Source: an uncultured Planctomycetales bacterium (GTDB lineage: Bacteria > Omnitrophota > Gorgyraeia > Aquiviventales > Aquiviventaceae). Taken from it: a stretch of 61,396 nt of DNA. The position numbers and the translations under genes are program-made. The stretch spans positions 1-61,396 of the forward strand of contig CAZUWM010000003.1 in assembly GCA_964624155.1 (NCBI GenBank), written 5' to 3'. Below are positions 2,331 to 61,308 of this stretch, one piece after another. Every line of letters starts with the position of its first letter. Within the stretch, counting starts at the first letter, position 1. The notes beneath the pieces are model-generated. The model saw only the letters and a program-made list of their open reading frames with translations. It did not search any database and was not told the DNA's origin.

Positions 2331-2732
2331 ATGTATCGCGTGACGAAAGTCATTCACTTCTGCTACGGTCATCGCCTCCTGAACTACCAGGGCACATGCC
2401 GCTACCTCCACGGGCACAACGGCAAGGTGGAGATTGAACTCGAGGCCCGCCAACTCGACCGGCGGGGGATGGTGCGGGATTTCAGCGAGATGAGATACAA
2501 GCTTCAGGGGTGGATCGACGCCCATCTTGACCACAAAATGATCCTCCATCATGATGATCCCGCGCTGGCAGCGCTGCGTAAGATGAAGGAACCGGTCTAC
2601 GTGATGGAAAGGAATCCGACGGCCGAGAACTTGGCCCAGTTGCTGTTTGAGCAGGCGAAACGGTTAGGGTTCCCTGTGCGGGCTGTGCGACTGTGGGAAA
2701 CCGCCTCGTCGTTCGCCACCTATCAGCGCTAG
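2331..2732 (+). CDS. queD: 6-carboxy-5,6,7,8-tetrahydropterin synthase (PTPS family)
   Basis: FCYGHRL, CRYLHGHN, LDHK, PTAENLA, WETASS motifs. Confidence 0.9.
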   Translation: MYRVTKVIHFCYGHRLLNYQGTCRYLHGHNGKVEIELEARQLDRRGMVRDFSEMRYKLQGWIDAHLDHKMILHHDDPALAALRKMKEPVYVMERNPTAENLAQLLFEQAKRLGFPVRAVRLWETASSFATYQR

Positions 2733-3943
2733 CGGTTCGTCGAATCGGCCGAGAGTTGTGCGCGTAGTTGGTCGAGCACCGGTTGGAGGACCTCTTTGAA
2801 GGAGGGTGAGGCGTATCGGATCGCCTGCTCTAAATCGTCCGAAGCCCCTTGGCGATCACCGAGTTTCAACCGGGCGGCCGCCCGGTCGTGATACACTTCA
2901 ACCGCTGAGGGATTCAGTTCGAGCGCTTTCGTATAATCCGCAAGGGCTCCATCCACATCGCCCTGGCGACCCTTCAGGATCCCACGAGTGTAGTAGACCG
3001 CCCATGTCTCTTCTTCCGGATACTCTGCGGTCAGTTCGATCACCTTGGTGTAATCCGCGATCGCTCCGCTCACCTCCCCGATCTTCTGAAGGACATCAGC
3101 TCGTTGCAGATAGACCTCAATCGCCTCCCCATCCGCTTCTAAGGCTTTGGCGTAATCAGCCAACGCCCCCTCTCGATCGCCCTGCGTGAGACGGACGTTC
3201 CCCCGCCCAACATACGCGCGAAATTCGTCGGGTGCCAGCTCGATGGCTTTGGTGTAATCCGCGAGGGCTTCTTCCAATTGTCCCGCGTGTTGATGGGCAA
3301 CCGCTCGACCGCGATAGGCGTCTTCGTTCTCCCGAAGTTCCACCTGTCGCGTGTAATCCGCAAGGGCTCCCTCGACATCGCCTTGCTCCAGTCGGACAGC
3401 CGCTCGATTGCCATACGCGAGATCGAGGTACGGATCGAGCTCGATGGCCTTGGTGTAATCCGCCATCGCCCCCGCGAGATCGTCTGTTCGTTTCAAGGCG
3501 TTGCCTCGATTGCGATACGGCTCGGCTTCCTCCGGCTCCAGCTCGATGGCTTTCGAGAAATCGACGATCGCGGATGCTGTTTCGCCGCGTTGCAACTGGA
3601 CGAGTCCTCGGTTGCGATACGCCGACACAAAGGCTGGATTCAACTCGATGGCTCTGGTGAAATCCTGCAGCGCTTCCTCGAGCTGCCCTTGATACGCATA
3701 CGCGACCCCGCGACCATGGTGGGCTTCGGCGTAGGTCGGATCGCGCTCGATGGCCTTGGTGTAGTTGGCAATCGCCTCCTCGAATTGATCGATGTCCTGG
3801 TATCCCACCCCGAAGACGTAATACGTCTGCGCATCGTCATCATCCGCCCGGCACAGATGACACAGAGACAGAGCAAACACACCACAGAGTACACAGATAA
3901 CACAGAGAATTTTTCTGTACCCTCTGTGGTGTGTTGTTCTCAT
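2729..3943 (-). CDS. Secreted tetratricopeptide-repeat protein
   Basis: About ten TPR units (A..NRG..A.ADYTKAIEL.P); hydrophobic Cys-rich N-terminus. Confidence 0.9.
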   Translation of the reverse strand: MRTTHHRGYRKILCVICVLCGVFALSLCHLCRADDDDAQTYYVFGVGYQDIDQFEEAIANYTKAIERDPTYAEAHHGRGVAYAYQGQLEEALQDFTRAIELNPAFVSAYRNRGLVQLQRGETASAIVDFSKAIELEPEEAEPYRNRGNALKRTDDLAGAMADYTKAIELDPYLDLAYGNRAAVRLEQGDVEGALADYTRQVELRENEDAYRGRAVAHQHAGQLEEALADYTKAIELAPDEFRAYVGRGNVRLTQGDREGALADYAKALEADGEAIEVYLQRADVLQKIGEVSGAIADYTKVIELTAEYPEEETWAVYYTRGILKGRQGDVDGALADYTKALELNPSAVEVYHDRAAARLKLGDRQGASDDLEQAIRYASPSFKEVLQPVLDQLRAQLSADSTNR

Positions 3944-3960
3944 CTCTGTGATCTCTGTGA
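3851..3960. repeat. CACAGA/TCTGTG palindromic repeat element, copy in the TPR gene 5' end
   Basis: Multiple CACAGA units followed by multiple TCTGTG units; shares ttctgtaccctctgtgg with 37819-37835. Confidence 0.75.
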
Positions 3961-4800
3961 CTTACGGCGGAGGAGATCGGTGGCGGCGCGGCTGCCTTCG
4001 CTCAGCAGGGAGCCCATTTTCGGGTGGCTGGGCTCGAAATCAACCGGCACGTCGTGTCGCGTCAGCGCTTCAGAACAAATCGGACCCACTGAGGCGACGA
4101 CAACGCGTCGTCGAACGGCCGCTCGCAACGTGGCGTCCATCTCCATCTCGCGAGCGACGTGCATCAGGTGATCGACTTGGGTCGCTGAGGTGAACAGCAA
4201 CACATCGGCCTGCCCGTGGCAGATGGCGCGAATCGCCTCTCGAAGCGGACCCGTGTCTTCGGGAAGGGCCCACCGATAGACCGGCACGCGCATCACCTCG
4301 GCTCCGCGCGTCTTCAATCCCTGAAGGAGCTCGTCGTTTGTGACGCCATATTCCTGCACCGCCACCCGCTTGCCCTGCACCGGGCACTGGCTGTCCAATG
4401 TCGTCAAGATATCGCGCCAGGTATTGGGCTCCGGGACGGCAATCGTGGGTTTGAGTCCGACCTCTCCCAACGCAATGATGGGTTTTGGGCCGCGCACCAC
4501 CAGGGTCACGCGACCCAGCGCCTGGATAATCTGCTCGTTGGGATACGTCGTGGCGAGGGCTGCGATGAGGGTACGTGTGCCGACCCCGGTCAGGAGGATC
4601 ACGACATCAAGCGAGCCATTGAACAGGCGCGTGGCGAAGGCCAGGGCTTCGTGCTGATCCGTAAGCGGCACTTCCCGCATCGAGGGCGCAACGAACGGCT
4701 CGCCCCCAAATCGACGAATCAGCCGATGCATGTCTTCTGCCCGTCGGCTTTCAAACGCCACGACCCTCAACCCACCGAAATCAGTCGCCGTCGTCATCAC
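3940..4800 (-). CDS. hemD: Uroporphyrinogen-III synthase
   Basis: VAFESRRA, LTGVG, RGPKP, VYRW, FTSATQV, SVGPICSEAL, HPKMG. Confidence 0.85.
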   Translation of the reverse strand: MMTTATDFGGLRVVAFESRRAEDMHRLIRRFGGEPFVAPSMREVPLTDQHEALAFATRLFNGSLDVVILLTGVGTRTLIAALATTYPNEQIIQALGRVTLVVRGPKPIIALGEVGLKPTIAVPEPNTWRDILTTLDSQCPVQGKRVAVQEYGVTNDELLQGLKTRGAEVMRVPVYRWALPEDTGPLREAIRAICHGQADVLLFTSATQVDHLMHVAREMEMDATLRAAVRRRVVVASVGPICSEALTRHDVPVDFEPSHPKMGSLLSEGSRAATDLLRRKSQRSQR

Positions 4801-5155
4801 CCGTCACCCGTGTCCGAGTCACCTCGACGCTGGCGGAGTCAATGGTGGGTACGGCCCGTTTGGTGACACGCACCGTCACTCGAGGCGTGGGGAACTCCTG
4901 CAGAACGACCGCCGCGATCTCCTCAGCGACCGTCTCGAGCAAGCGATGGGCCTGTCCTTGGACATGGCGGCTCACCACTCCTACCACGGCCGCGTAGTCA
5001 ATCGCCTCCCGGACGTCATCATGGGCCGCGGCACGTGCGGCATCAATCGCCAATTCCAGATCAATCCCAATCCGCTGGGGCGCGGCGCGTTCCGCCTCGG
5101 TGACCCCGATCCGACACGGCACCACCAACCCGTTAAGGCACAGCTTATCGTTCAT
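4781..5155 (-). CDS. folB: Dihydroneopterin aldolase
   Basis: IGVTEAER..PQRIGIDLEL, IDYA, LLETVAE, VRVTK. Confidence 0.9.
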   Translation of the reverse strand: MNDKLCLNGLVVPCRIGVTEAERAAPQRIGIDLELAIDAARAAAHDDVREAIDYAAVVGVVSRHVQGQAHRLLETVAEEIAAVVLQEFPTPRVTVRVTKRAVPTIDSASVEVTRTRVTGDDDGD

Positions 5156-5698: not shown

Positions 5699-6514
5699 CT
5701 ACCCACTGATGATATCTCGTGGGTTTATTCTCCTACCCTCAGAAGGCTGAACCTTTTTCCAGAGATCAGGAAAATAAGTCGATGTCCTGGTTAGAATCCC
5801 GCTTTTCGTATCCGTGATCGGTTCCAACCTAAATGGCCTTGAGGCCCAAGTCGCATCTTTTGCAAGCGGATAGTATTTGAGTTGCCCGCCTGATTCTCCA
5901 TACCACTCGAAAAGCGTGCCATGTTTGTCATCGCCTTTCAGGCAGCGTGTGGTAGAAAAGTACCACTTCAATGTCTCGGCTTTTGGTAAGGCGATCTTGA
6001 ACTGATGCAATTGATACAGGCCTTGCCTGTTCCACGATAGCACAAGATAAAAGCTCTTTTGGAGGTTAATAATCCCGCCACGCTGCGCGCTGACCGCTTC
6101 ATGCCAGCTTTCCACCAGATCGATCAGTTCCTTGCCAACAAGTTTTGGTCTTTTCAAGTAGGTTTTCGGGGTCATCCCTTGTGCCCCAAGTTGTCTCCAA
6201 AATTTTCCTGCTGAGTTCGAAAGCTCAAAAGAAACTCGTCCTGTTGTCACCAGCTTGTTTAGCTCTCGCCTCATCTTACAGGCAACTCCAAACCTGACTG
6301 TAGAATCGACTGCGATCGGAACGATGACATCAAAAATTGATTTGTTTTCCTGCGCTTCGCCAGAGAAAACGACGGCAACCGTACGCTCAAAATCTCTCCA
6401 GCCTGGCAGAGTTAAGCCGCCCTTCTGGGTCAGCATGCCTGAGCCATCCTGGTAGACGCTCAGTATCAGTCGAATTCGCTCAACTTCTTTCTCGGTAGGT
6501 ATTCTGAAATCCAT
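5699..6514 (-). CDS. Putative type II restriction endonuclease (PD-(D/E)xK-like)
   Basis: WRDFER...FDV...GVACK resembles a nuclease core; lies behind an HTH gene and opposite a DNA MTase; AT-richer than flanks. Confidence 0.6.
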   Translation of the reverse strand: MDFRIPTEKEVERIRLILSVYQDGSGMLTQKGGLTLPGWRDFERTVAVVFSGEAQENKSIFDVIVPIAVDSTVRFGVACKMRRELNKLVTTGRVSFELSNSAGKFWRQLGAQGMTPKTYLKRPKLVGKELIDLVESWHEAVSAQRGGIINLQKSFYLVLSWNRQGLYQLHQFKIALPKAETLKWYFSTTRCLKGDDKHGTLFEWYGESGGQLKYYPLAKDATWASRPFRLEPITDTKSGILTRTSTYFPDLWKKVQPSEGRRINPRDIISG

Positions 6515-6518
6515 GCCC

Positions 6519-6767
6519 TCAACGCTTTAGCTTCAACTCATCACGTAAAAGCTGATCAATGGTCACACCGAAAAAGTCTGCAACTTTTAACACCAGATCC
6601 ACAGTAGGCTTTTTCTTGCCAGATTCGATCTCGCTGAGGTATCCGTGCGCTGAGTAACCAAGTTTCCGTGCAAGGTCTTTGAGAGTTAGCCGCCTTTGCA
6701 GGCGAAGCGAACGGAGTTTCTCACCAAATTTTCGTATCGTTCTGTCCCTCGAAATCCCTCTTGACAT
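6519..6767 (-). CDS. XRE-family HTH protein, probable R-M controller (C) protein
   Basis: FGEKLRSLR..RLTLKDLA..GYLSEIESGKKKPTVD; directly upstream of the putative REase. Confidence 0.8.
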   Translation of the reverse strand: MSRGISRDRTIRKFGEKLRSLRLQRRLTLKDLARKLGYSAHGYLSEIESGKKKPTVDLVLKVADFFGVTIDQLLRDELKLKR

Positions 6768-6806
6768 CCAAAACCAAATTTGCTATTCTGTCTCTAATAG
6801 AGACAG
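6761..6806 (+). promoter_or_regulatory. Sigma70 promoter of the MTase overlapped by an 8-bp inverted repeat (candidate C-box/operator)
   Basis: TTGACA(6761)-N17-TATTCT(6784) with TGn; CTGTCTCT-aat-AGAGACAG at 6788-6806. Confidence 0.65.
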
Positions 6807-6834
6807 CCTTTTGAACACTCGGAAATTAGAGCAG

Positions 6835-7788
6835 ATGGAAATTGTGACCTCCCACCGCCGTCGTAAGCCGATCAACAGCCCATTGAAGTGGGTAGGCGGT
6901 AAATCGCGTTTACGGAAAGCTATCATCAGCTTACTTCCCGATCATACCTGCTATGTGGAACCCTTCGCCGGAGCCGCCTGGGTACTTTTTGGTAAATCTC
7001 CAAGCGATGTCGAGATCTTGAACGATATCGACCAAGAATTGATTACGTTCTTTCGCGTCGTTAAAGAACGACCCGACGATCTCATAGCTTCTTTTGAGTG
7101 GGAACTTGTTTCGAGGGCAGAGTTTGAAAGACTCGCCAATCTCGACCCTCAGACGCTTGACCCTATGCAGCGGGCGCATAGATTTTACTACCTCATTATG
7201 GCAGGATGGGGCGGTGAATTGAACTATCCTCGTTTTGCCACAAGCATCACCGATGGTGGGCATGGCAACCGTCTCATCGGCGCACTCAAGACCTTGCGTG
7301 CTCGTTTGGAACCTGTCTATGAACGACTCAAAACCGTTATCATTGAAAACCTAGACTGGCAGGAGTGTGTGGATCGTTACGATCGTCCTGGTACGCTTTT
7401 ATACCTTGATCCACCCTACCCTGGTAACGGCTGTAACTATGCTCATAATATGCGTTCTTGGGACGCTCATGAGAAGTTAATTGAGAGACTCAAGCAAACT
7501 CGGGCGAAATGGATTTTATCGTCCTACGACATACCAGAAATGCGCGGTTTCTTCTCTGATCATTTCATCGTTTCTGTCAGATCGTCATCGGGAATGAAGG
7601 TAAAGAAAAATGATAATTCGAGAGTCTTGAACGAGGAAATCCTGGTAACAAACTTTTCTCCCAAGACAAACTCACAGTATATTACCGCTCAGAATTCCCA
7701 GTTAACGTTGTCTTTGGGAGACGCCGTGGCGGAACCCGATTCGATTTATAGGGCTGGAAAAAAATTCTTCGTTCTCCAGCCTTCCTGA
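6835..7788 (+). CDS. DNA adenine methyltransferase, Dam/D12 class
   Basis: PLKWVGGKSRL, YVEPFAGAA, ILNDID, YLDPPY. Start chosen at ATG 6835 downstream of the promoter. Confidence 0.9.
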   Translation: MEIVTSHRRRKPINSPLKWVGGKSRLRKAIISLLPDHTCYVEPFAGAAWVLFGKSPSDVEILNDIDQELITFFRVVKERPDDLIASFEWELVSRAEFERLANLDPQTLDPMQRAHRFYYLIMAGWGGELNYPRFATSITDGGHGNRLIGALKTLRARLEPVYERLKTVIIENLDWQECVDRYDRPGTLLYLDPPYPGNGCNYAHNMRSWDAHEKLIERLKQTRAKWILSSYDIPEMRGFFSDHFIVSVRSSSGMKVKKNDNSRVLNEEILVTNFSPKTNSQYITAQNSQLTLSLGDAVAEPDSIYRAGKKFFVLQPS

Positions 7789-12809: not shown

Positions 12810-13286
12810 TTACGGAACGTCTTGGTCCTCGACCACGTAGTCTTTGCGCATCGGATGACCCTTGAAGCCTTCCCACATCAAGATGCGGCGCAAATCGGGA
12901 TGGCCCTCAAAGATGACGCCGAACAAGTCGTACGCCTCCCGCTCCTGAAACTCCGCGCCGCGCCACATCGGGGTCACGGAAGGCACGACCGGATTCGCCC
13001 GTGGGAGCTTGACTCGCACCGCGAGGGGACCATGTTTCTGTTTCATGGAATACAGATGGTAGACGGTTTCAACGGCATCCGGAGGATAGTCGATGGCCGT
13101 AAGGTTGGAGAGATAGTCCATGTCATACGCGGGCGAATCCTTCAGGAATCGACAGACCCGCAACAGATCCTTCACCTCCACGACGAGGGTGAGACCTTCC
13201 AGTTGGAGCGTCACACCAGGAAGGCTGCGTTCAATGGTGGCTTTGAATGCGTCAACCGGAGGAAGCATCCTATACACAGATGTCAC
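12810..13286 (-). CDS. nuoC: NADH-quinone oxidoreductase subunit C
   Basis: [43 protein letters not shown]. Start may be 13268. Confidence 0.92.
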
Positions 13287-13293
13287 AGATCAA

Positions 13294-13350
13294 GAACTCC
13301 ACAGATTGACACAGATATCTGTGCTCATCTGTGTGTTGCATCTGTGCTCG
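13294..13350. repeat. CACAGAT/ATCTGTG repeat element at the nuoB-nuoC junction
   Basis: Four CACAGAT-type units then four TCTGTG units; supplies the nuoB tail [11 protein letters not shown]. Confidence 0.7.
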
Positions 13351-13936
13351 TCTGTGTTGATGGAGGTTGCCAGACATCAGAGTTATACCGCGGCACCAGT
13401 CCCTGTTCACCAAACGCGGGGACTGGATATTCGCCTCGTTTCTGATCCATGGCTGCCTTGAAGGATTGCGCTTTGATGTGTGCTTGAAGGCGCATCAACC
13501 CGTCCAGCAATGCCTCCGGCGTGGGAGGACAACCCGGAATATAGACATCAACCGGGATATACCGATCAATACCTTTGAGGACGTTATAGCCCTTGTGAAA
13601 CGGACCACCCGAGGTCGCACAGGCGCCCATCGAGATCACGTACTTGGGCTCAGCCATCTGGTTGTACAAGCGCACCACTTGGGGCGCCATCTTCTTCGTG
13701 ACGGTCCCCGCGACAATCATGAGATCAGCCTGTCGAGGCGAGGCACGGAAGATCTCCGAGCCGAATCGCGCGATGTCATACCGCGAGGCGGCGGTGGCGA
13801 TCATCTCAATGGCGCAGCAGGCCAGCCCGAACTGCAGCGGCCAGATCGAGTTGGACCGCCCCCAGTTGACGAGTTGATCCCAGGTCGTCACGTAGACGCC
13901 CTGCTTCTGCAACTCGCTCTTGAGGCCTTCGTCCAT
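13325..13936 (-). CDS. nuoB: NADH-quinone oxidoreductase subunit B
   Basis: [41 protein letters not shown]. Confidence 0.96.
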
Positions 13937-16964: not shown

Positions 16965-17820
16965 TTATGGCACAGACTGTCGTGATGAGAGAATGTCGTC
17001 AGGCAAGGTTCCCGCGAGCAGAGGGACGGATCCCGGCCAGCTGCTCGCAAGCTCCGGGGCGGGCGGTTCGCGGGTGATCGTCAGATCATCGTAGTAGGCG
17101 AGGGCTTCGGTCTGCGTGCTATCCGTATCGGTCATGAGCCCAATGGCGACGATCATCGGTGGATCGTCCTCGAAACAGCGTCGGTAATCCTCCGTCACAT
17201 TCCGTTTCACCGTCTGCCACGAACCGAGGTGCTCACGTCCGCTTTCAACGACAAGGATCTTCGAGTTTCTGGAGTAGGGACTCTCAAGCACCGTGTCAAC
17301 CGGCAGCGTCGCCGACCAGACGTAGTCGAGGTTGCGTTTCTGCCAGGGAAGCCCCGAGCTCTCGAAATAGACGTAGACCCGTGCGGAGGCATCCGAGCCT
17401 TGTTTGAGACTCAGGTTTTCTCCTTGGACGAACCGATCCACGCGCCACCGCCAGGAAATCCACGGATGGTGGGCGGGATCGACATGGAGCGGGGTTAAGA
17501 GGATCGAGGCTCCGGATTGACTGAGGGCTTGGAGGCTGGACAATCCGTCAAGCTGTTCGATGCCGTAGCGGGTACGGCCGTGAATCGCGACCTCCCGCCA
17601 GCGCTCGGAATCCAGGCGATCAAATGGCTCTTGGAAGATCAGATTCGAGACACGAGGAAACGGGAAGGACGAGGTCGTCGTGGCAGCCGCGTGGGGCTGG
17701 GAAGGACGATGCCGGGGCGCGCACCCTCCGCTGATGAGGAGCAACGTGATTTCACAGATTACAAGACTGATTCCACAGATTCTTACCCAGCGATCACTCA
17801 GTGCAATCCTCTGACAATCC
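16965..17820 (-). CDS. DUF3047-like lipoprotein
   Basis: ISWRWRV, DASARVYVYF, YVWSA, VVESG, MTDTDST; lipobox ISGGC. Start uncertain (ORF open to 17942). Confidence 0.7.
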
Positions 17821-17865
17821 CCGCCTGCCTCAATGTCCACGGGGCGGGCAGGTGTGTAATCTGTG
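17755..17865. repeat. CACAGATT repeat plus CCCGCCTGCC..GGCGGGCAGG palindrome
   Basis: cacagattt/cacagattc...aatctgtg units; palindrome at 17820-17852. Confidence 0.55.
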
Positions 17866-30122: not shown

Positions 30123-30323
30123 ATGCGTACCACCCTTGATCTGAATGAGAAGTTGTTGTCCCAAGCCATGGCGGCTGCACACACGAAGACGAAGAAAGCA
30201 ACGGTGGAGCGATCGTTGCGTGAATTGATCCGCGCCGCCCACATCGAACGGCTCATCACCCGACGCGGAGAGGGGACGACGCTGACCCTCCGCACGCTGT
30301 CCCGCATGCGTCGGGATGCGTAA
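30123..30323 (+). CDS. vapB: VapB-family antitoxin
   Basis: MRTTLDLNEKLL..AM..TKTKKATVERSLRELI; promoter TTGCTA-N17-TATTTT at 30075-30103. Confidence 0.85.
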   Translation: MRTTLDLNEKLLSQAMAAAHTKTKKATVERSLRELIRAAHIERLITRRGEGTTLTLRTLSRMRRDA

Positions 30324-30735
30324 GCCGCTCGTCTTGGTCGATTCGTCCATCTGGATTCCCTTCCTGCGGAGTCGAACAGCCGATCCGGCGGCGGAACTCC
30401 TGATGGGGCTGCTTCGTGACAAGCGGGTCGCGACCAACTGGCTGATCCGGCTGGAACTGCTCAGTGGAACGGCCACACACCAGGCCTATGAGTCGCTCGA
30501 TGCAGATCTGGCCGCGCTCCATCAGCTCCCGCTGACAGAGAAGGTGTTTCACGCGGCCAGCCTGCTACGATGGCGGCTCCATCGCAAGGGTGCTTCCATT
30601 CCGGTGGTCGATACCCTGATTGCGGCCTGCGCCATCTTCTACGCTTGCCCACTGCTGGAAGACGATGCTCACTTCCGACTGATCGCCAAACACGCCCCGC
30701 TTCATCTTCATCTTTCGTCAGGGCTCCACATTTGA
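30316..30735 (+). CDS. vapC: PIN-domain toxin
   Basis: LVDSSIWI, ELLSG, VDTLIAACA, LLEDDAHF. Confidence 0.9.
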   Translation: MRKPLVLVDSSIWIPFLRSRTADPAAELLMGLLRDKRVATNWLIRLELLSGTATHQAYESLDADLAALHQLPLTEKVFHAASLLRWRLHRKGASIPVVDTLIAACAIFYACPLLEDDAHFRLIAKHAPLHLHLSSGLHI

Positions 30736-36361: not shown

Positions 36362-37882
36362 TCACTGTTCTTCAAAAATCTGATCTTGGAAGGTGAAGAG
36401 GTCGGCGGATTGCCAGGCATCGGGAGGCAGGCCGGCTTTTTGGGAGGCGAGCTCGCGCAAGAACTCCAGGCGGGTCCAGCCGGTTTCGTGCCACACCTGC
36501 GGGAGAAACAACCCGCTGCGACCATCCTTCTGCAAGATCACCCCGTCGCGCCCGGCGACAATCTCTTGAGCCGATGGGACCGGCTGGGAAGGGGTGAGGA
36601 TCGACACCTCGATGGAGACCTGATCCAACTCTTCAGCCGTCATCGGCGCAAAACGCGTATCGCGCAGCGCCGCATCCATGGTCACGATCGGCAGGAGCTG
36701 AGCCAGCGGTACATCGCTTTCGATGCGGCCGATACAACCGCGCAACTCCTTGTTGGCGCGCCGTCGCAGCGTGACGAACATCCCCTGCTTGTTTGAAAGC
36801 TCCGGAAACGACTCGAGCGACACCGGCGCCGCACTGCGGGGATGGAAGTAATGCTGCAATGTTGCGCGGGCCGCGCGCACCAACGCCATCCCCGCCTCCG
36901 AGGAGAGAGGAGAGGAGGGCGACGTGATCAGGGGCACGACGTACAGATCAATGGCGGCATAGCCCACCACGCCACGGCTCTTGTCGCCGGTCGTATCACC
37001 TGAGTTCGCATAGTGGAGGAGGCGGGGCTTCTGATAGCCGAGACGCTCGGTGAGTGAGAGCGCAGCCAGGATCGGCCCTCGACCACACGCCTCGAGATGG
37101 CCAGCCTGAAACAATCGATCCACGGCGCTGGAGGTTTCGCGCAAGATGAGGTTGATCGTCTGCTCGTCACGTCGCTTTGCGTCATCATAGGGGTGGTAGT
37201 GCGACAAATCTGTGCTGAAGACGAACAGATAATTGTCCTGCTTGGCGAGTGTGGCGAGCGAGTCAGCGAGCGCCTGCGCATCTTTCAAGTCCACACTGCC
37301 CATCAGAATGGGAATCAGCTTGAAGTCGCCAAGGGTGACTTGGAGAAACGGCAGCATCACCTCGATCGAGTGCTCCCCGGAGGCATGCGCCGACTCTACG
37401 TGCGAGAGGCCGGGTTGCAGCATCAGCCATGCGGCAACATTGGTATCAATGGGAATGACCCCAAGCGGGGTCTGGTAGCCATCACGGTCATCCACCGAGC
37501 TGCCCTCAAATTGGCCGCGGTGGGTGAACCCAACGACGACAACCCCCTCGTAGGAGTGCCCTTGCACCTGGCGAAACGCGCGGGCGGCCACGGGGCCGGA
37601 ATATTCGTATCCAGCGTGAGGGACGATCAGGACGCTCGGCACAGGGGCTGAGGCGTCGGGCTCAGGCTGCTGGCTGAGGAGCTGTGTGACGAGGGCGCGA
37701 AGGGCGGTTGGGTCGTCCGGATAAAACGAGCCCGCAACCTGCGCTTCCCTGACCTCCGCACCGACCACAGAAGTCACAGATAGACAGAAACACACCACAG
37801 ATAACACACAGATAAATCTTCTGTACCCTCTGTGGAGCAGCTGTGTCATCTGTGGAGTTTCTGTGGCATCTGTGGTGATCAT
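36362..37882 (-). CDS. AmmeMemoRadiSam protein B (MEMO1) + protein A (AMMECR1) fusion
   Basis: VAGSFYP, PHAGYEYSG, EHSIEV.LPFLQ, STDLSHY, ANSGD; GMFVTL..LRGCIG, DTRF, LFLPQVW, LASQKAG. Confidence 0.92.
   Translation of the reverse strand: MITTDATETPQMTQLLHRGYRRFICVLSVVCFCLSVTSVVGAEVREAQVAGSFYPDDPTALRALVTQLLSQQPEPDASAPVPSVLIVPHAGYEYSGPVAARAFRQVQGHSYEGVVVVGFTHRGQFEGSSVDDRDGYQTPLGVIPIDTNVAAWLMLQPGLSHVESAHASGEHSIEVMLPFLQVTLGDFKLIPILMGSVDLKDAQALADSLATLAKQDNYLFVFSTDLSHYHPYDDAKRRDEQTINLILRETSSAVDRLFQAGHLEACGRGPILAALSLTERLGYQKPRLLHYANSGDTTGDKSRGVVGYAAIDLYVVPLITSPSSPLSSEAGMALVRAARATLQHYFHPRSAAPVSLESFPELSNKQGMFVTLRRRANKELRGCIGRIESDVPLAQLLPIVTMDAALRDTRFAPMTAEELDQVSIEVSILTPSQPVPSAQEIVAGRDGVILQKDGRSGLFLPQVWHETGWTRLEFLRELASQKAGLPPDAWQSADLFTFQDQIFEEQ
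37765..37880. repeat. CACAGA/TCTGTG repeat element, copy in the Memo-Amme gene 5' end
   Basis: Same unit structure as 3851-3960 and shares a 17-mer with it. Confidence 0.75.
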
Positions 37883-39520: not shown

Positions 39521-41149
39521 TCAAGTCCATGCGCCCCGCAACGCCGTGAGGGCATCATCCGTCACAGCGGAGGGCGCGCGATCGGTGGAGAGCTTCGTCC
39601 ACTGGGAGGACGTCCAGCCACGGACGGGCTCAAACCCTTCCCTCAGGCGATCATAGTGTTCTGGCTTGGCCTCTGAGAGATCACGCCTCTGTGCATATCG
39701 TGCCCCGAGGCGCTGGATCGCCACCGCTCGCGGCGCCGTGCACTCGAAGAAATGAAACGAGGCGCCGTGGCGTCGCGCGATCTGAGCCAGCGTCCGGCGG
39801 CCTTCGGCTTTCGAGAAGGTCCCATCGCAGATGACCGAGCGGCCCTGGCGCACGAGGGCGTCGGCGCGCTGGATGAGCCGCTGGTAAACCAGCGCGGAGA
39901 CGCGCGGCGCATAGAGCCCATCGGCAAATCCTGACCCCGCCTCTGCTTCGCCGCCTGGCTTCGCAGCAGCAAGCCGCCGAAATCGCGCAAATTCTTTCAG
40001 TCGAATCTCATCCGTCCGAAGCCAGACCGCGCCCAGTCGCTCGGCGAGGGCCTTCGCGAGTGTGCTCTTCCCTGTCCCGATGAGCCCGCCGACGGCGATG
40101 AGTCGAGGCGGCGCAAACTGGCGGGTGTAGCGAAGCGCCAGGGCGAAGTGCCGCCGGGACAGCTCCCGAAGCCGACGACCTTCTGGAGTACGTGGATGTT
40201 GGAGCCACGCCAGTCCCCTGACCTTCCCTCGCACGAGAGTCCGATGGCACTTGTAGAACGGGAGCAGTAGATCACCGGTCGAATCGTTGAACCCTCGTCG
40301 ATACTGAGCGACCAACGCGTCGGCCAACCGGCGTTTCCCTCGGAATTCCAAATCCATCACGAGGAAGCTCAGGTCGTTCACCGCATCACCGCACCGAAAC
40401 GCCGGTTGAAACTCCACGCAGTCGAAGATCGTCACCGGATCAGTCACGCAAATATTTTCACAGCGCAAGTCGCCGTGCCCGTCAACGATCCGTCTCTCAC
40501 GGATTCGCTGCTGCAGTAGGGGTCCATGGAGGGTGAGAAATTGACGATACGCCGACTCCAGGAATCGGCGATCCGACTCAGAGACGAGCCGCCCGACGAA
40601 GGGGGCGCACTCCTGCAGATTGCCTAGCACCAACTGGGCGACGGCTGCTGGGGTGCCGAAGCGAGTAATTTGCGCGCTGCGTGCCGCGCGCTTGAAGAAC
40701 CGAACCAAGGTCTGCCCGATGTGGAGCATGTCGCCTCGGCCGACTCGGCGTCTTGCCACGAGCTGATCGAGCATGCGCGCTTCGGGCAGTCGGCGCATCT
40801 TGACGAGCCATTCAACCGTCTTCCCCCGCCCCCCAAGCTGAAGCGCTCCTCCTCGTTCCACGACCGGCACAAGACCGAGATAGATGCGGGGAGCTAAGCG
40901 CCGATTGAGAGCAAGCTCCAAACCACACCATCGCTTGCGCAGCGAAAGCGTGGAGGCGTCGAGGAACGGAAACTTCACCGGCTTCTTGAGCTTGTACGCG
41001 AACGATCCGGCGAGGAAGACATGGGAGACATGCGTCTCGCGGCGCTCCACCCGATCGACCGCGTGAGGATAGTTCGCGGGATCTGAGAAGAACGAGACGA
41101 GACGACGTTCGTGCGTGGCCAGAACGGTGGACTTACGTGAGTTTCCCAA
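39521..41149 (-). CDS. Bifunctional aminoglycoside-phosphotransferase-like / AAA_33 P-loop kinase
   Basis: ETHVS, YKLKKPV, DGHGDLR.ENI, FDCVEF; GGLIGTGKS (Walker A). Start uncertain (TTG 41149 or 41194). Confidence 0.88.
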   Translation of the reverse strand: MGNSRKSTVLATHERRLVSFFSDPANYPHAVDRVERRETHVSHVFLAGSFAYKLKKPVKFPFLDASTLSLRKRWCGLELALNRRLAPRIYLGLVPVVERGGALQLGGRGKTVEWLVKMRRLPEARMLDQLVARRRVGRGDMLHIGQTLVRFFKRAARSAQITRFGTPAAVAQLVLGNLQECAPFVGRLVSESDRRFLESAYRQFLTLHGPLLQQRIRERRIVDGHGDLRCENICVTDPVTIFDCVEFQPAFRCGDAVNDLSFLVMDLEFRGKRRLADALVAQYRRGFNDSTGDLLLPFYKCHRTLVRGKVRGLAWLQHPRTPEGRRLRELSRRHFALALRYTRQFAPPRLIAVGGLIGTGKSTLAKALAERLGAVWLRTDEIRLKEFARFRRLAAAKPGGEAEAGSGFADGLYAPRVSALVYQRLIQRADALVRQGRSVICDGTFSKAEGRRTLAQIARRHGASFHFFECTAPRAVAIQRLGARYAQRRDLSEAKPEHYDRLREGFEPVRGWTSSQWTKLSTDRAPSAVTDDALTALRGAWT

Positions 41150-41753
41150 CGGTGTACGATGACCGAATGCTCGCCCAGATCGCCAGCATCCCAAGGCCGA
41201 TGGCCAAGAGGAGCGCGGGGGCGCTTATCGCGCCGTAGTGAGCCGGCGCGAGCATGCCGAAGAGCATGGGACCGGAGAGGAACGTATTGATCCGAGAGGT
41301 CAGCAGCGCCCGTTTCCTCACCGCCGGAGCCTGTTCGGCCGGGACTTTGCCGGTCAGCAGACGCTTCTGGGCCGGCCAGATGATGAACCACACGTTGAAC
41401 CACATGATGGTTCCCAACAGCATACCGAACAAAATCCACATGGCCCGCTGGGTCATTCCCATCGTATCGATCAACAAACTGGTCGGCCCAAATCCTACCC
41501 CTGGGGTATAGAAGTAGGTCAGGACAAACAGCGTCAGGCCGGCGAGGAAGGTGATCATCGCGCCCCACCGGAACCACCACAAGACTCGCGGCATCAGTTG
41601 CGGATTGACGGCCTTTTTGGTGGCGTCATCGAGCGAACCTTGGAGGGGGACATTGACGAAGTTGAAAAAATAGAGATGTCCGATCCAGGTAATGCCCGCG
41701 ATCACATGGAGCCATCGGACGATCAAGTGGACGTTGCTGTAGAGATCCGGCAT
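41133..41753 (-). CDS. Membrane protein of the urate-oxidase-N / PuuD-like family
   Basis: RWLHVIAGITWIG.LYFFNFV, WWFRWGA, IM.FNVW.IIWP.Q, SRINT.LS.PMLF.M. Confidence 0.75.
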   Translation of the reverse strand: MPDLYSNVHLIVRWLHVIAGITWIGHLYFFNFVNVPLQGSLDDATKKAVNPQLMPRVLWWFRWGAMITFLAGLTLFVLTYFYTPGVGFGPTSLLIDTMGMTQRAMWILFGMLLGTIMWFNVWFIIWPAQKRLLTGKVPAEQAPAVRKRALLTSRINTFLSGPMLFGMLAPAHYGAISAPALLLAIGLGMLAIWASIRSSYTVGKLT

Positions 41754-49317: not shown

Positions 49318-50670
49318 TCATCGGGCGTTCTCTCGTACGAACTGCTCCACAAGCGGCCGAACCATTCGTTCTTTGGACAGCGGAAAGAAGTCGAAGAGCA
49401 TACAAAGCTCACTGACTGTTGAATGGACTAAATCGATCAGCTTGGGTTCAATGTCTTTCAGACGTTCTTTAATCCATGCCTCCGCTTCATCCTCAATACA
49501 CACTCGTTGAGTGTGCATCGTCATCGCCCGTCCAGGGTCACCTGCCGATAGGACCCGGCTTCGAAGCCCAGTGTACCGGATTCTGATCACGACTTTCTGT
49601 TCAGGTCCTACGTGAAGGGTTCGATACAGCCGGCTGATTCGCATGAGGGTTTCTGCGGTGCGGACAATCCGCGTATCCACGAAAATCTTCCCTTCGGATC
49701 GCTCATCTTCAAACAGCGTCTTCAGGAGATAAAACACCCGGTCTGTCCGAAGCGCCCAGTAGTCGAACGAAGATCGGCCCGTTAGTCCACCGGTCAGAAT
49801 GGTGGCTCGGATTCCGTCCTTATGAGGCTTTGGCGCATCTGCCGGTCGAGTCATTACCAGCCCGATCGGCCATCCGAATGAATGTACCTGGGTCTGCTCC
49901 ATGGCTCGCCGCAGCTCATCCTGCCGAAATTGCAGGGTTGTGTCCGGCGTCTGTCCCGTCGCTACTTTCCACGCGTCCTGCTGTGCGTTAACCACGGTAT
50001 CTGGAAGATAGGCGAGCACTTCCATCAAGCATTTGTCAAGTTGCCGAGTCTTCGCGATACCAAGCGCCTCTCGCCGCTCCTGCTCAACCCATGCTTTGAG
50101 GTTGTTGTACTCATCAGCAACTTTGACCTCTTCCGCATGGGCTTGGCGCGGTGGCCTCAAGATAAAATCAAAGTCACAGCCTGCCTTGCTCGCAAATCTC
50201 CGGAGATAGTCGATCGTGATCTTCTCCCGTCCTTGTTCGATTCCGGAGACGAACTGCTGGCTGCAGCCGAGCATCTCAGCCACTTCTCCTTGTGAGAGGT
50301 GCAGGGCTTCTCGACACTGGCGCAACTTGCTGGTCAATTCTTCAATGAACGGGTCAGGCTCACGAGGCTGCCTCTGGCGAAGCCTTACTCCGGAATGCTT
50401 AAACTCGCGGCTATACCGCTCGTAGGTGGCTCGCCAGAACGCCCCTTTCTCCTTGGTCCATTCATCCTTATTGACCTCTTGCTGGATGGCGTAGAACCGA
50501 CGACAAAATGCCAGCGGCTTAATCAAGGAGAACACCTGCTCAGGATCATCAACTCGTGCCAACAGGCGGGCAGCCACCCGGGGAAATTTGGGATTCTGCT
50601 CATCGGTCAAGATGTCCCGAATCTTCTCGATCGGCATGCCTAAATCCCAATACCAATTCTCACGTTTCAT
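49318..50670 (-). CDS. XRE HTH-containing multidomain protein with a large uncharacterised C-terminal domain
   Basis: Central LSQGEVAEMLGCSQQFVSGIEQG; ATGA overlap with the upstream NTase; AT-richer. Confidence 0.75.
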   Translation of the reverse strand: MKRENWYWDLGMPIEKIRDILTDEQNPKFPRVAARLLARVDDPEQVFSLIKPLAFCRRFYAIQQEVNKDEWTKEKGAFWRATYERYSREFKHSGVRLRQRQPREPDPFIEELTSKLRQCREALHLSQGEVAEMLGCSQQFVSGIEQGREKITIDYLRRFASKAGCDFDFILRPPRQAHAEEVKVADEYNNLKAWVEQERREALGIAKTRQLDKCLMEVLAYLPDTVVNAQQDAWKVATGQTPDTTLQFRQDELRRAMEQTQVHSFGWPIGLVMTRPADAPKPHKDGIRATILTGGLTGRSSFDYWALRTDRVFYLLKTLFEDERSEGKIFVDTRIVRTAETLMRISRLYRTLHVGPEQKVVIRIRYTGLRSRVLSAGDPGRAMTMHTQRVCIEDEAEAWIKERLKDIEPKLIDLVHSTVSELCMLFDFFPLSKERMVRPLVEQFVRENAR

Positions 50671-51368
50671 GTGGTCACGTAGCGACGGTTCAGACGCTCA
50701 TACACCTGCTGTTCCATGTGTCGCATGATTTGCTTGATATTACCCTCTGGCGCAATATCAAGCAGGTCAAACGTGGTCCCTTGACCTGTCATCGCTTGCA
50801 GCCACCGCGTCAGCCGCTGATAGTCCTGACGGCCAAAATGGGTTGGAAACCACTCGTGCAGCGGTGCATAGTGTGTCGAAAGATACCACAGGTCAAAAAG
50901 GTCTTTGGCGTAGTCTCTCCCTCCGGCAAGCCGTTGTCCAGTTGAAGATACTTTGTCGGTCCATCCGATGACAGCACGAACCTTTCGCAGGTAAATGTCA
51001 TCCATTGACGCGATACCATCCTGCTCAACCGGCTGCAGCAATGGATCAAAGTCTTCGATGATGTCTACCTTCACAAATATTCCCTTAGCAACATTGAATT
51101 CGTAGACCGCCACCTTCGCAAGACGAGGCCTGATCCGTTCGTCCAAGAGGCGGAATGAAAACCCTGTTGCTCGCTCAATGCACTTGCCAAGCGTTCGGTG
51201 CAACTTGTGGCTCCATTGTTGAGTGAAGAAATCGATATCTTCCGAGTAACGATGCCGACAACGGATCGCAAGGGCCGTTCCTGCCGCCAGATAAACACCA
51301 AGATTAGCCGCAGTGACAGCCTTGAGCATTCTCTTCTGCACTTCAATGATAGTTTGATTGATAGACAT
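50667..51368 (-). CDS. AbiEii/AbiGii-like nucleotidyltransferase
   Basis: YLAAGTALA..HRYSEDIDFF, KVDII, KDLFDLWYL. Confidence 0.85.
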   Translation of the reverse strand: MSINQTIIEVQKRMLKAVTAANLGVYLAAGTALAIRCRHRYSEDIDFFTQQWSHKLHRTLGKCIERATGFSFRLLDERIRPRLAKVAVYEFNVAKGIFVKVDIIEDFDPLLQPVEQDGIASMDDIYLRKVRAVIGWTDKVSSTGQRLAGGRDYAKDLFDLWYLSTHYAPLHEWFPTHFGRQDYQRLTRWLQAMTGQGTTFDLLDIAPEGNIKQIMRHMEQQVYERLNRRYVTT

Positions 51369-60385: not shown

Positions 60386-61249
60386 ATGACTCAACGGGTA
60401 ATTACTGTGGGGCATACGCCGGACATGGACGACGCGTTCATGTTCTACGCCATCGCGGAGGGCAAGGTGGCCGTGGAGGGGTTCTCCATCCAACATGTCA
60501 TTGAAGACATTCAAGCCCTGAACCAACGAGCCCTCCGCGCTGAATTGGATGTCACCGCGGTCTCGGCGGCCGGCTACCCGCTCATGGCCAAAGACTACTG
60601 GATCCTCTCGATCGGTTCCAGCGTGGGGCGCGGCTATGGGCCGCTCGTCGTCGCCACCAAGGGCTGCAATCCTCAAGAGCTTGCGGGGGGGCGCTACGTG
60701 GCCGTGCCGGGCCTGCACACGACGGCGTACCTGGTCTTACGCTTAGCCATTCCGGAGATCGTGCCGGTCGAGATGCCGTTTGAGCAGATCCCGGAGTCGG
60801 TCTTGAGCGGGCGGGTGGAGGCGGGGCTCTTGATTCATGAACGACAACTGACGTATCGCGATCAAGGGCTGCTGCCGATCCTAGACCTCGGGACGTGGTG
60901 GCAGACCCAGACGAAACTGCCCTTGCCGCTCGGTCTGAACGTCATCAAGCAGTCGCTCGGCCAACCGTTGGCCACGCAATTCGCGCAACTCTTGAAGGAC
61001 AGCATTGTCTACGCGATGACCCATCAGGATGAAGCGCTGAGTTGGTCGTTGCGCTACGGACGGGGGATTGACCCCGTCCGCGCCCGACAATTCGTGAGCA
61101 TGTATGTCAATGAAGACACCCTCACCTTCTCCCCCGCGTGCCAGCAGGCGTTGCATCTCCTGTACGAACGCGCGCAGGCCTGTGGCCTCATTCCCTCCGT
61201 GCCCCCGTTGACCTTCATCCAGCCGACCACACAGATTTCACAGATTTAA
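60386..61249 (+). CDS. mqnD: 1,4-dihydroxy-6-naphthoate synthase (futalosine pathway)
   Basis: GHTPDMDDAFMFYAI, GRGYGP, PG.HTTA, LLIHE, DLG.WW..T.LPLPLG, MYVN. Confidence 0.9.
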   Translation: MTQRVITVGHTPDMDDAFMFYAIAEGKVAVEGFSIQHVIEDIQALNQRALRAELDVTAVSAAGYPLMAKDYWILSIGSSVGRGYGPLVVATKGCNPQELAGGRYVAVPGLHTTAYLVLRLAIPEIVPVEMPFEQIPESVLSGRVEAGLLIHERQLTYRDQGLLPILDLGTWWQTQTKLPLPLGLNVIKQSLGQPLATQFAQLLKDSIVYAMTHQDEALSWSLRYGRGIDPVRARQFVSMYVNEDTLTFSPACQQALHLLYERAQACGLIPSVPPLTFIQPTTQISQI

Positions 61250-61308
61250 AAACAGATTGCACAGATTGATCTGTGAAATCTCACTTCAAGAATCTGTGTA
61301 ATCTGTGT
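61230..61308. repeat. CACAGATT/AATCTGTG repeat element between convergent mqnD and def
   Basis: Four ACAGATT units then three ATCTGTG units. Confidence 0.75.

Follow-up and report, generated by a model that had tools for sequence, protein, structure and literature searches.

Hairpin repeats of heptamer arrays as probable replacements of signal-peptide codons in an Omnitrophota-like genome

The first 61,396 nucleotides of contig CAZUWM010000003.1 (GenBank assembly GCA_964624155.1, from an uncultured bacterium placed in the GTDB phylum Omnitrophota) contain five copies, here called E1 to E5, of a repeat built from CACAGA and TCTGTG units. This stretch of DNA was analysed as a whole and is referred to below as the window; it is ordinary chromosome with a sequence that occurs in metagenome assemblies only, and the homologues of two of its proteins considered here, a Memo-AMMECR1 fusion and a DUF3047 lipoprotein, carry Omnitrophica names. 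On the plus strand, each copy has three to five CACAGA(T) units and then about as many (A)TCTGTG units, with a unit spacing of 9-11 nt, and all copies are compound inverted repeats. The window has 48 occurrences of CACAGA/TCTGTG, compared with 28.6 ± 5.3 in dinucleotide shuffles (0 of 100 shuffles reach 48), and 33 of the 48 occurrences fall within the five clusters; a looser scan yields four clusters with at least five approximate units versus none in 20 shuffles. All five copies fold into hairpins (-38.8 to -58.9 kcal/mol; z -2.8 to -8.3 relative to shuffles). An initial annotation of this DNA had reported the repeat at these five sites, and all five exist, with limits slightly wider than those first given (Table 1).

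The 3' end of a gene adjoins each of the five copies. Because the copies are inverted repeats, with CACAGA first and TCTGTG second on both strands, upstream genes receive polar tails and downstream genes receive hydrophobic heads. The polar tails of NuoB and MqnD are indeed repeat-encoded, as had been noticed initially, but their attribution to the other strand does not hold for an inverted repeat: E2 encodes the last ~10 residues of NuoB, with the likely nuoC start (ATG 13268) just outside the copy, and E5 encodes the last 6-7 residues of MqnD (tail TTQISQI before the stop). The HemD-like protein, with its repeat-encoded end (Table 1), has a relative of 82% amino acid identity (L129) that ends in RRKRETS before the stop and lacks the repeat. 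In this closest hemD relative (L129, positions 3320-3375), the ATGA overlap is kept, then comes ATGAGA (M-R) as in the window, and the contig breaks 35 nt later.

Downstream of the repeat, three proteins (a TPR-repeat protein, the Memo-AMMECR1 fusion, and the DUF3047 lipoprotein) very probably start inside it, the TCTGTG arm encoding their predicted hydrophobic cores. That this arm forms the N-termini of all three had been proposed in the initial annotation (for the DUF3047 lipoprotein, as probable); the reading frames agree with the proposal, and it is from these frames that the repeat is taken to be translated. The peptides named there (TPR, HRGYRKILCVICVLCGVFALSLC; Memo-AMMECR1, HRGYRRFICVLSVVCFCLSVTSVVGA; DUF3047, RICGISLVICEITLLL) were recovered, as was the 17-mer TTCTGTACCCTCTGTGG, which is common to the TPR and Memo-AMMECR1 copies. 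In these two proteins, a basic n-region precedes a hydrophobic core (HRGYRR and FICVLSVVCFCLSVTSVV in one, HRGYRK and ILCVICVLCGVFALSLCHLC in the other), with maximal Kyte-Doolittle values over 10 residues of 3.1-3.2 (3.2 for the TPR protein). The first TPR repeat directly follows CRADDDD (Pfam match from residue 40), and the only in-frame starts, ATG 3943 and a GTG at V22, both lie within the repeat; the cleavage site C-R-A/D (a slash marks the point of cleavage throughout) is plausible by pattern only, there being no homologues to compare. For the Memo-AMMECR1 fusion, all sequence from the stop of the kinase gene to A/EVREAQVAG is repeat, and the cleavage-site pattern is V-G-A/E, with the x-A/E position shared by homologues (VSA/E, AWA/E, VGA/E). 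In the DUF3047 protein, the signal of which ends in ICEITLLLISGGC, position -3 is S and the core includes a glutamate (the lipobox pattern used was [LVI][ASTVI][GAS]C, preceded by a hydrophobic core without charges), and the sole start candidate between the arm and the lipobox Cys is a TTG giving MLLISGGC. Since in-frame start candidates are found only in or before the arm, a start downstream of the repeat, which would leave these peptides untranslated, is unlikely for all three proteins; the Memo domain, the DUF3047 lipobox Cys, and the first TPR repeat directly follow the arm.

Comparison with orthologues bears on the question of whether export preceded the repeat. The start of the Memo domain, (V/A)AG.FYP, is present in 118 of 120 Memo-AMMECR1 homologues, and in 112 of these 118 the N-terminus is extended by 18 or more residues, which include a strongly hydrophobic segment and usually end in V/A-x-A/E (here the first slash denotes V or A). 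The 76% orthologue L005 is without the repeat and has an ordinary signal, MRRGLHFGSWFLVVALLPVPLWAG/EVR, while keeping the ATGA overlap with the kinase gene. The 83% orthologue L004, with flanks that by inspection are ~90% identical to the window, has a rearranged copy of the repeat that is still in frame and gives MSQRKILCALCGVLFFSVLLCSVPSVQA/EVR; its kinase gene terminates in exactly a CACAGATGA unit. Close orthologues of the DUF3047 protein are predicted lipoproteins with L-x-G-C lipoboxes, e.g. MRRDEWVWVCVLLLAAGC (the forms being LVGC, LAAGC, and LGC), and a lipobox-like pattern is found in 63 of 120 DUF3047 homologues, many being truncated calls. The core RICGISLVICEIT recurs exactly in P0243/L006, the mature DUF3047 proteins being just 70% identical. 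For the TPR protein, the orthologue search returned generic TPR proteins only (best identity 34%) and no information on the start site, and among 80 relatives found in metagenomes by a hemD-based synteny search, none has a TPR gene downstream, the closest contig ending 35 nt past hemD.

As the Memo-AMMECR1 and DUF3047 families were, by these predictions, already exported, the repeat replaced a signal and conferred no new location. Judged from the orthologues, ancestral export is shown for two of the three proteins, and the repeat is seen to have overwritten pre-existing signals and not to have relocated cytoplasmic enzymes. The initial annotation had envisaged a mobile repeat that creates export signals and could thereby move normally cytoplasmic enzymes. 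The dispersed repeat family survives from that proposal; the new signals and the relocation do not, and the suggested comparison of starts with repeat-free orthologues itself goes against relocation, L005 already having an ordinary signal.

Table 1. Features at the repeat-bearing junctions of the window
Feature	Coordinates	Strand	Hairpin (kcal/mol; z)	Remarks
Copy E1	3852..3959		-58.9; -6.8 (RNA)	5 CACAGA + 3 TCTGTG units; central core CCACAGAGGGTACAGAA; spans hemD-like stop and TPR start
Copy E2	13275..13356		-38.9; -4.8	4 + 4 units; between nuoB and nuoC
Copy E3	17753..17865		-44.6; -2.8	Starts directly after TAA of PG_binding lipoprotein gene; right arm within DUF3047 gene; outer arms ACACAGATTACA / TGTAATCTGTG
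Copy E4	37766..37874		-51.7; -4.1	4 + 4 units; core as in E1; between NAD kinase-like and Memo-AMMECR1 genes
Copy E5	61230..61307		-38.8; -8.3	3 + 3 units; flanked by the 3' ends of two convergent genes, mqnD (+) and an unnamed one (-) that extends past the window end
TPR-repeat protein gene	2729..3943	-		404 aa
HemD-like (uroporphyrinogen-III synthase) gene	3940..4800	-		Last 6 residues SQRSQR from CACAGA units
DUF3047 lipoprotein gene	16965..17840	-
Memo-AMMECR1 fusion gene	36362..37882	-		506 aa
ATGA stop/start overlap, hemD-like/TPR	3940-3943			Inside 5' arm of E1
ATGA overlap, NAD kinase-like/Memo-AMMECR1	37879-37882			As at E1
TPR N-terminus (predicted)	3839..3943	-		Repeat-encoded MRTTHHRGYRKILCVICVLCGVFALSLCHLCRA; basic n-region, 20-residue hydrophobic core, possible C-R-A/D cleavage site
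DUF3047 N-terminus (predicted)	17721..17840	-		MDIEAGGDCQRIALSDRWVRICGISLVICEITLLLISGGC as publicly called; core RICGISLVICEIT from ATCTGTG arm, then lipobox-like ISGGC
Memo-AMMECR1 signal peptide (predicted)	37760..37882	-		Repeat-encoded; mature side /EVREAQVAG; second possible start M12

The components of the AmmeMemoRadiSam system, Memo and AMMECR1, are usually held to be cytoplasmic. In the Memo-AMMECR1 fusions of Omnitrophota (36362-37882 of the window and P0001-P0120), a Sec signal peptide is nearly always predicted (112/118), which suggests that the Memo/AMMECR1 enzyme may be periplasmic here. No radical-SAM partner gene is adjacent to the fusion gene in the window, its neighbours being the NAD kinase-like gene and a helix-turn-helix gene.

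The coding properties of the repeat units are suited to a signal peptide. All three frames of ATCTGTG (I-C-V, S-V, or L-C) fit a signal-peptide core, and those of CACAGAT (H-R, T-D, or Q-I/M) are polar or basic. The unit CACAGATGA holds both ATG and TGA, so that the stop/start overlap is reproduced, and the centre of the E1/E4/L004 subfamily, CAC AGA GGG TAC AGA A, reads HRGYR(K/R), which is a textbook n-region. Units in the lineage of the window are most often spaced 9 nt apart, which keeps the frame, versus 10 nt elsewhere. We think it probable, though well short of certain, that hairpin copies resembling repetitive extragenic palindromes (REPs) or miniature inverted-repeat transposable elements (MITEs) at the five sites replaced the ancestral signal-peptide codons of exported downstream proteins. 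Copies would land in the very short spacers between co-directional genes of a compact Omnitrophota-like genome, where CACAGATG(A) units would give the ATG of the downstream gene together with the TGA that ends the upstream one, the centre of the repeat (CAC AGA GGG TAC AGA A/G) would give the basic n-region HRGYR(K/R), the ATCTGTG arm would give the hydrophobic core, and the last few ancestral codons would preserve the lipobox or cleavage site. Next to a gene for a cytoplasmic protein, as with nuoC, the repeat remains outside the downstream coding sequence. Such a replacement would be tolerated because signal peptides are constrained by their physico-chemistry and not by their sequence, and it would work because every frame of ATCTGTG encodes a hydrophobic stretch and CACAGATGA provides an ATG as well as a TGA; we infer it to have been neutral.

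In E1 and E4, the 5' arm of the hairpin (-52 to -59 kcal/mol) contains both the ATG and the stop of the upstream gene. Free initiation within so stable a stem would be poor, and a ribosome terminating upstream would open the stem; strict translational coupling at E1 and E4 is therefore a reasonable inference.

The junction between the PG_binding and DUF3047 genes offers a view of how the repeat turns over in close relatives. A hairpin array is present there in all four sequences available (the window, L006, L007, and L008), of the CACAGAT type in the window and L006 and of the CGCGGAT/CGCTGAT type in L007 and L008; in the latter two (L007 3025-3125, L008 30-125), CGCGGAT/CGCTGAT and ATCCGCG/ATCAGCG units reach into the signal-peptide codons. 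The DUF3047 protein tree is ((window, L008),(L006, L007)), with ~88% identity within pairs and ~70% between them. Repeat type and protein tree are thus incongruent, which points to replacement or recombination and not to slow point mutation. Deamination of CpG, turning CGCGGAT into CACAGAT, was considered and rejected: CpG in the window has an observed/expected ratio of 1.15, and CGCG occurs 562 times versus 635 expected. Copy E3 itself carries an internal insert of ~70 nt (17782-17852), a GC-rich imperfect stem CCTGCCCGCCCC..GGCAGGCGGGG, which is absent from the orthologous L006 copy and occurs a single time in the window; the public GTG start call of the DUF3047 gene falls within this insert. 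Additionally, some relatives are without the repeat at the hemD and Memo junctions (L129 and L005, respectively). Variation of this kind at the junctions is the main indirect evidence for mobility, and the repeat, judged by its distribution and its variation among relatives, would appear to be mobile.

The window repeat has counterparts far beyond this lineage. When genomes, one for each species, were scanned with the pattern CACAGAT-N2-4-CACAGAT-N5-35-ATCTGTG, at least 120 stretches matched. Among the matches listed are members of the Acidobacteriota, Bacteroidota, Chloroflexota, Planctomycetota, Verrucomicrobiota, Cyanobacteria, Omnitrophota, Patescibacteria, spirochaetes, NC10, Nitrospirae, and some Proteobacteria, as well as two archaeal metagenome-assembled genomes (MAGs) and several cultured strains, such as Chryseobacterium sp. 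Leaf201, Pedobacter ghigonis, Scytonema sp. HK-05, and Asticcacaulis biprosthecium C19. A typical copy forms an almost perfect hairpin, (TTT)AAC-CACAGAT-NNA-CACAGAT-NNA-CACAGAT - loop of 7-30 nt - ATCTGTG-TNN-ATCTGTG-TNN-ATCTGTG-GTT(AAA), with the outer consensus (T)TWAAC-CACAGAT and without the GTAG/CGTC head of REPs. Copies of one genome have common arms and differing loops, and an arm of ~30 nt, AACCACAGATGGACACAGATAAACACAGAT, is nearly identical in Planctomycetota, Acidobacteriota, and Chloroflexota. Among the matches listed, copies lie a median of 34 nt past a stop codon, and just 2 of ~105 lie deep within an open reading frame (ORF), nearly all being intergenic. Viral contigs contain 47 stretches of CACAGAT arrays, 60 of CACGGAT, and 18 of CGCGGAT, compared with 6 and 6 for two composition-matched control heptamers; the C[AG]C[AG]GAT motif is therefore specific. 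BLAST of a consensus copy against plasmids gave six unannotated matches, mainly to cyanobacterial plasmids.

Searches for a partner or an existing name for the family gave negative results. No transposase or REP-associated tyrosine transposase (RAYT) gene is present in the 61-kb window, as judged from ORF lists, Pfam, and further checks of the window. Around ~170 loci (the 120 genomic ones listed and 47 viral ones), there is no conserved neighbour gene or recurrent ORF family, be it a transposase or a regulator, and no related full-length insertion sequence (IS) with the same ends is seen among neighbouring ORFs of these loci or the genes of the window, a result that covers those stretches and not whole genomes. 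Direct repeats at the palindrome boundaries of 80 copies do not exceed chance expectation (46 copies with length 0, 25 with 1, 7 with 2, and 2 with 3), i.e. there is no target-site duplication. Rfam has no family matching the window elements or 10 further loci, apart from sub-threshold matches to generic long hairpins (miRNA precursors). At the protein level, a phmmer search with a 38-aa repeat peptide against 1.84 billion proteins gave one match that passed the threshold (P0361), the query being too short for a census. This protein of 220 aa has two copies of Y(W/R)G(S/I)LCVLCVLCGS(N/F)A(M/L)SGF, close to the N-terminus of the window TPR protein, and probably reflects a spurious ORF that runs through two elements of this repeat subfamily in a different organism.

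Several individual contigs show the hairpins in other settings. Two viral contigs (L324 and L325) carry a CACGGAT-type repeat of ~75 nt with conserved arms and loop, at about one per gene, with seven copies in 12 kb. In a Candidatus Falkowbacteria MAG (L125), two CACAGAT hairpins (797-846 and 1468-1515) lie within the 23S rRNA gene and look like intervening sequences; the Rfam match to the large-subunit rRNA there spans 1-1779 for just 1395 model positions. Two hairpins of a Patescibacteria MAG (L019, 4586-4634 and 5086-5154) directly flank the gene for transfer-messenger RNA (tmRNA) at 4667-5070. As a tentative proposal, possible but one on which we would not rely, the window repeat may be one lineage of an undescribed cross-domain superfamily of hairpins (C[AG]C[AG]GA[TG] arrays), spread by trans-acting machinery that is possibly phage-borne and able to settle at any place that tolerates a hairpin or a hydrophobic peptide: after stops, in 23S rRNA, by tmRNA, and, as a stop-start-basic-hydrophobic cassette, in signal-peptide codons.

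Literature searches by motif and by description found no account of this repeat, only analogues (those of Delihas, REPINs, GTAG/CGTC REPs, and TAACTGA repeats). The nearest are the YPAL/RU-2 and ERIC MITEs of Yersinia, which occur as in-frame fusions with genes and can contribute to a predicted signal peptide or transmembrane segment, e.g. in YPO1552 (Delihas 2007; reviewed in PMC2229807). Like the window repeat, they are small palindromes with a hydrophobic frame within a predicted signal peptide; unlike it, they are 127-168 bp long with terminal inverted repeats, are confined to enterobacteria, and are unrelated in sequence. They were also proposed to create new exported proteins, whereas orthologues of the window proteins point to replacement of a signal. 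What is already known is thus the MITE-derived signal peptide; what is new is an unrelated heptamer-array repeat, documented replacement of a signal, and a cross-phylum family, the last of which appears to be undescribed and to be the more novel part. The palindromic elements of Rickettsia, which Ogata and colleagues reportedly described in 2000 (cited in PMC2229807), are the classic case of a translated palindrome and are said to be inserted in frame and translated in otherwise conserved proteins and to occur in RNA genes as well. They differ from the window repeat in being internal insertions that encode surface-exposed segments, in their restriction to one genus, and in the absence of heptamer arrays.

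REPs and REPINs are mobilised by RAYT transposases of the Y1 type (PMC3116915, PMC3733652). They share with the window family the form of short hairpins found mainly after genes, in genome-specific families and without target-site duplication. Indeed, the family consists of many dispersed, mostly extragenic hairpins (5 copies in the 61 kb of the window, 7 in the 12 kb of L324), with arms common within genomes. In contrast to REPs, it has no GTAG/CGTC head, no RAYT is seen in the window or near ~170 copies, and one heptamer motif is found again in many phyla, REP sequences being specific to a species. Of MITE traits, the family has the whole element as an inverted repeat and lacks target-site duplication (80 copies) and, at the ~170 loci and in the window, a related full-length IS. 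Taken together, these features place the family closer to REP-like hairpin repeats than to classical MITEs, although the hallmarks of REPs (GTAG/CGTC head, RAYT gene) were not found. Correia elements of Neisseria are abundant hairpins at gene junctions that are co-transcribed with genes and have stems that are substrates of RNase III. Their defined terminal inverted repeats, TA duplication, and IHF site are not seen in the window family. Heptamers in short intergenic arrays, a patchy spread across phyla, and no known mobilising mechanism are also features of the TAACTGA direct repeats of Beggiatoaceae, Cyanobacteria, and Bacteroidetes (PMC4679880). These, however, are contiguous direct repeats of a different heptamer just upstream of start codons, and the window family forms inverted hairpin arrays. 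To our knowledge, none of the DnaA box, CRP, LexA, attC, and parS sites matches the orientation, spacing, or copy number of the repeat.

Three other explanations may be set against replacement of ancestral signals. That the repeat creates new export signals and so relocates normally cytoplasmic enzymes such as the Memo-AMMECR1 fusion is highly improbable; it has in its favour the repeat-encoded N-termini, the usually cytoplasmic nature of Memo and AMMECR1 proteins, and the fact that no orthologue fixes the ancestral location of the TPR protein, but the signal peptides of 112 of 118 fusion homologues, including that of repeat-free L005, and the lipoprotein nature of the DUF3047 orthologues contradict it for two of the three proteins. 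It is also distinctly unlikely that the hydrophobic peptides are an artefact of annotation, i.e. that the copies are purely intergenic hairpins acting as terminators or mRNA stabilisers, with true starts at or after the last unit. Copies in other genomes are indeed intergenic, with frames through them that are stop-to-stop artefacts, the hairpins are very stable, and GTG codons are present in the last units. All three proteins would then, however, be left without the signal peptide of their families; the DUF3047 gene would have only the TTG before its lipobox Cys, the next downstream GTG of the TPR gene (in GVG) would cut the first TPR repeat, and the frame is open in two diverged copies (window and L004).

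A third possibility, compatible with replacement, is that the hairpin is selected as a regulatory structure that couples or gates translation of the exported downstream protein, or that serves as an RNase III site, its coding capacity being secondary. The persistence of a hairpin array over the stop/start at the PG_binding/DUF3047 junction in 4/4 sequences, whether of CACAGAT or CGCGGAT type, speaks for it, as do the ATGA overlaps inside the 5' arms of E1 and E4 and the copies that flank a tmRNA gene or sit in a 23S rRNA gene, which are usual places of RNase III-type processing. Gene context is nevertheless not conserved over ~170 loci (for the genomic part, among the matches listed), close relatives are without the hairpin at the hemD and Memo junctions, and covariation of spacers between arms is not significant in a crude test (0.65 vs 0.60), so that we regard selection for regulation as unlikely to be the principal explanation. 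Replacement of ancestral signals, which we prefer, has its own difficulties. With the ATG buried in hairpins of -52 to -59 kcal/mol, initiation should be difficult unless it is coupled to upstream translation, and GTG codons in the last TCTGTG units (Memo V39, TPR V22) could yield shorter products that lack a signal. In the DUF3047 signal, the core contains the glutamate and the lipobox, S-G-G-C, is non-canonical, and the TPR protein is without an orthologue for comparison in either the orthologue or the hemD synteny search. Typical members of the family elsewhere are not translated, open frames through them being stop-to-stop artefacts with a real ATG downstream. Finally, no insertion or excision was observed, the public metagenome contigs compared with the window (assembled and mixed with relatives) being uninformative in this respect, and an empty site was not found in a very close relative.

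Elsewhere in the window, a low-GC island at 5699-7788 (GC 0.49; GC at third codon positions, GC3, 0.50) contains an ORF for a Dam-like (DPPY) DNA methyltransferase and an adjacent ORF of 271 aa without a Pfam match, and is probably an acquired restriction-modification pair. A second island of lower GC (49318-51368; GC3 0.55-0.60) contains two ORFs of 450 and 233 aa, and PIN-domain and Zeta-toxin-like genes are found at 30316-30735 and 39521-41194.

The repeat described here would represent a selfish or structural DNA element that has been absorbed into coding sequence at a place where sequence hardly matters, the signal peptide, with orthologues showing the states before and after. It also carries a warning for annotation: elsewhere the repeat makes spurious ORFs, and here it alters the choice of start codon and the predicted localisation of the protein. 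If it is true that a stable hairpin contains the stop/start overlap, the arrangement is a candidate device for strict translational coupling. The hairpin family as a whole reaches many phyla, archaeal MAGs, and viral contigs with a conserved heptamer and with no known mobilising enzyme or binding protein, and to identify that partner would be a new departure in the study of REP-like elements.

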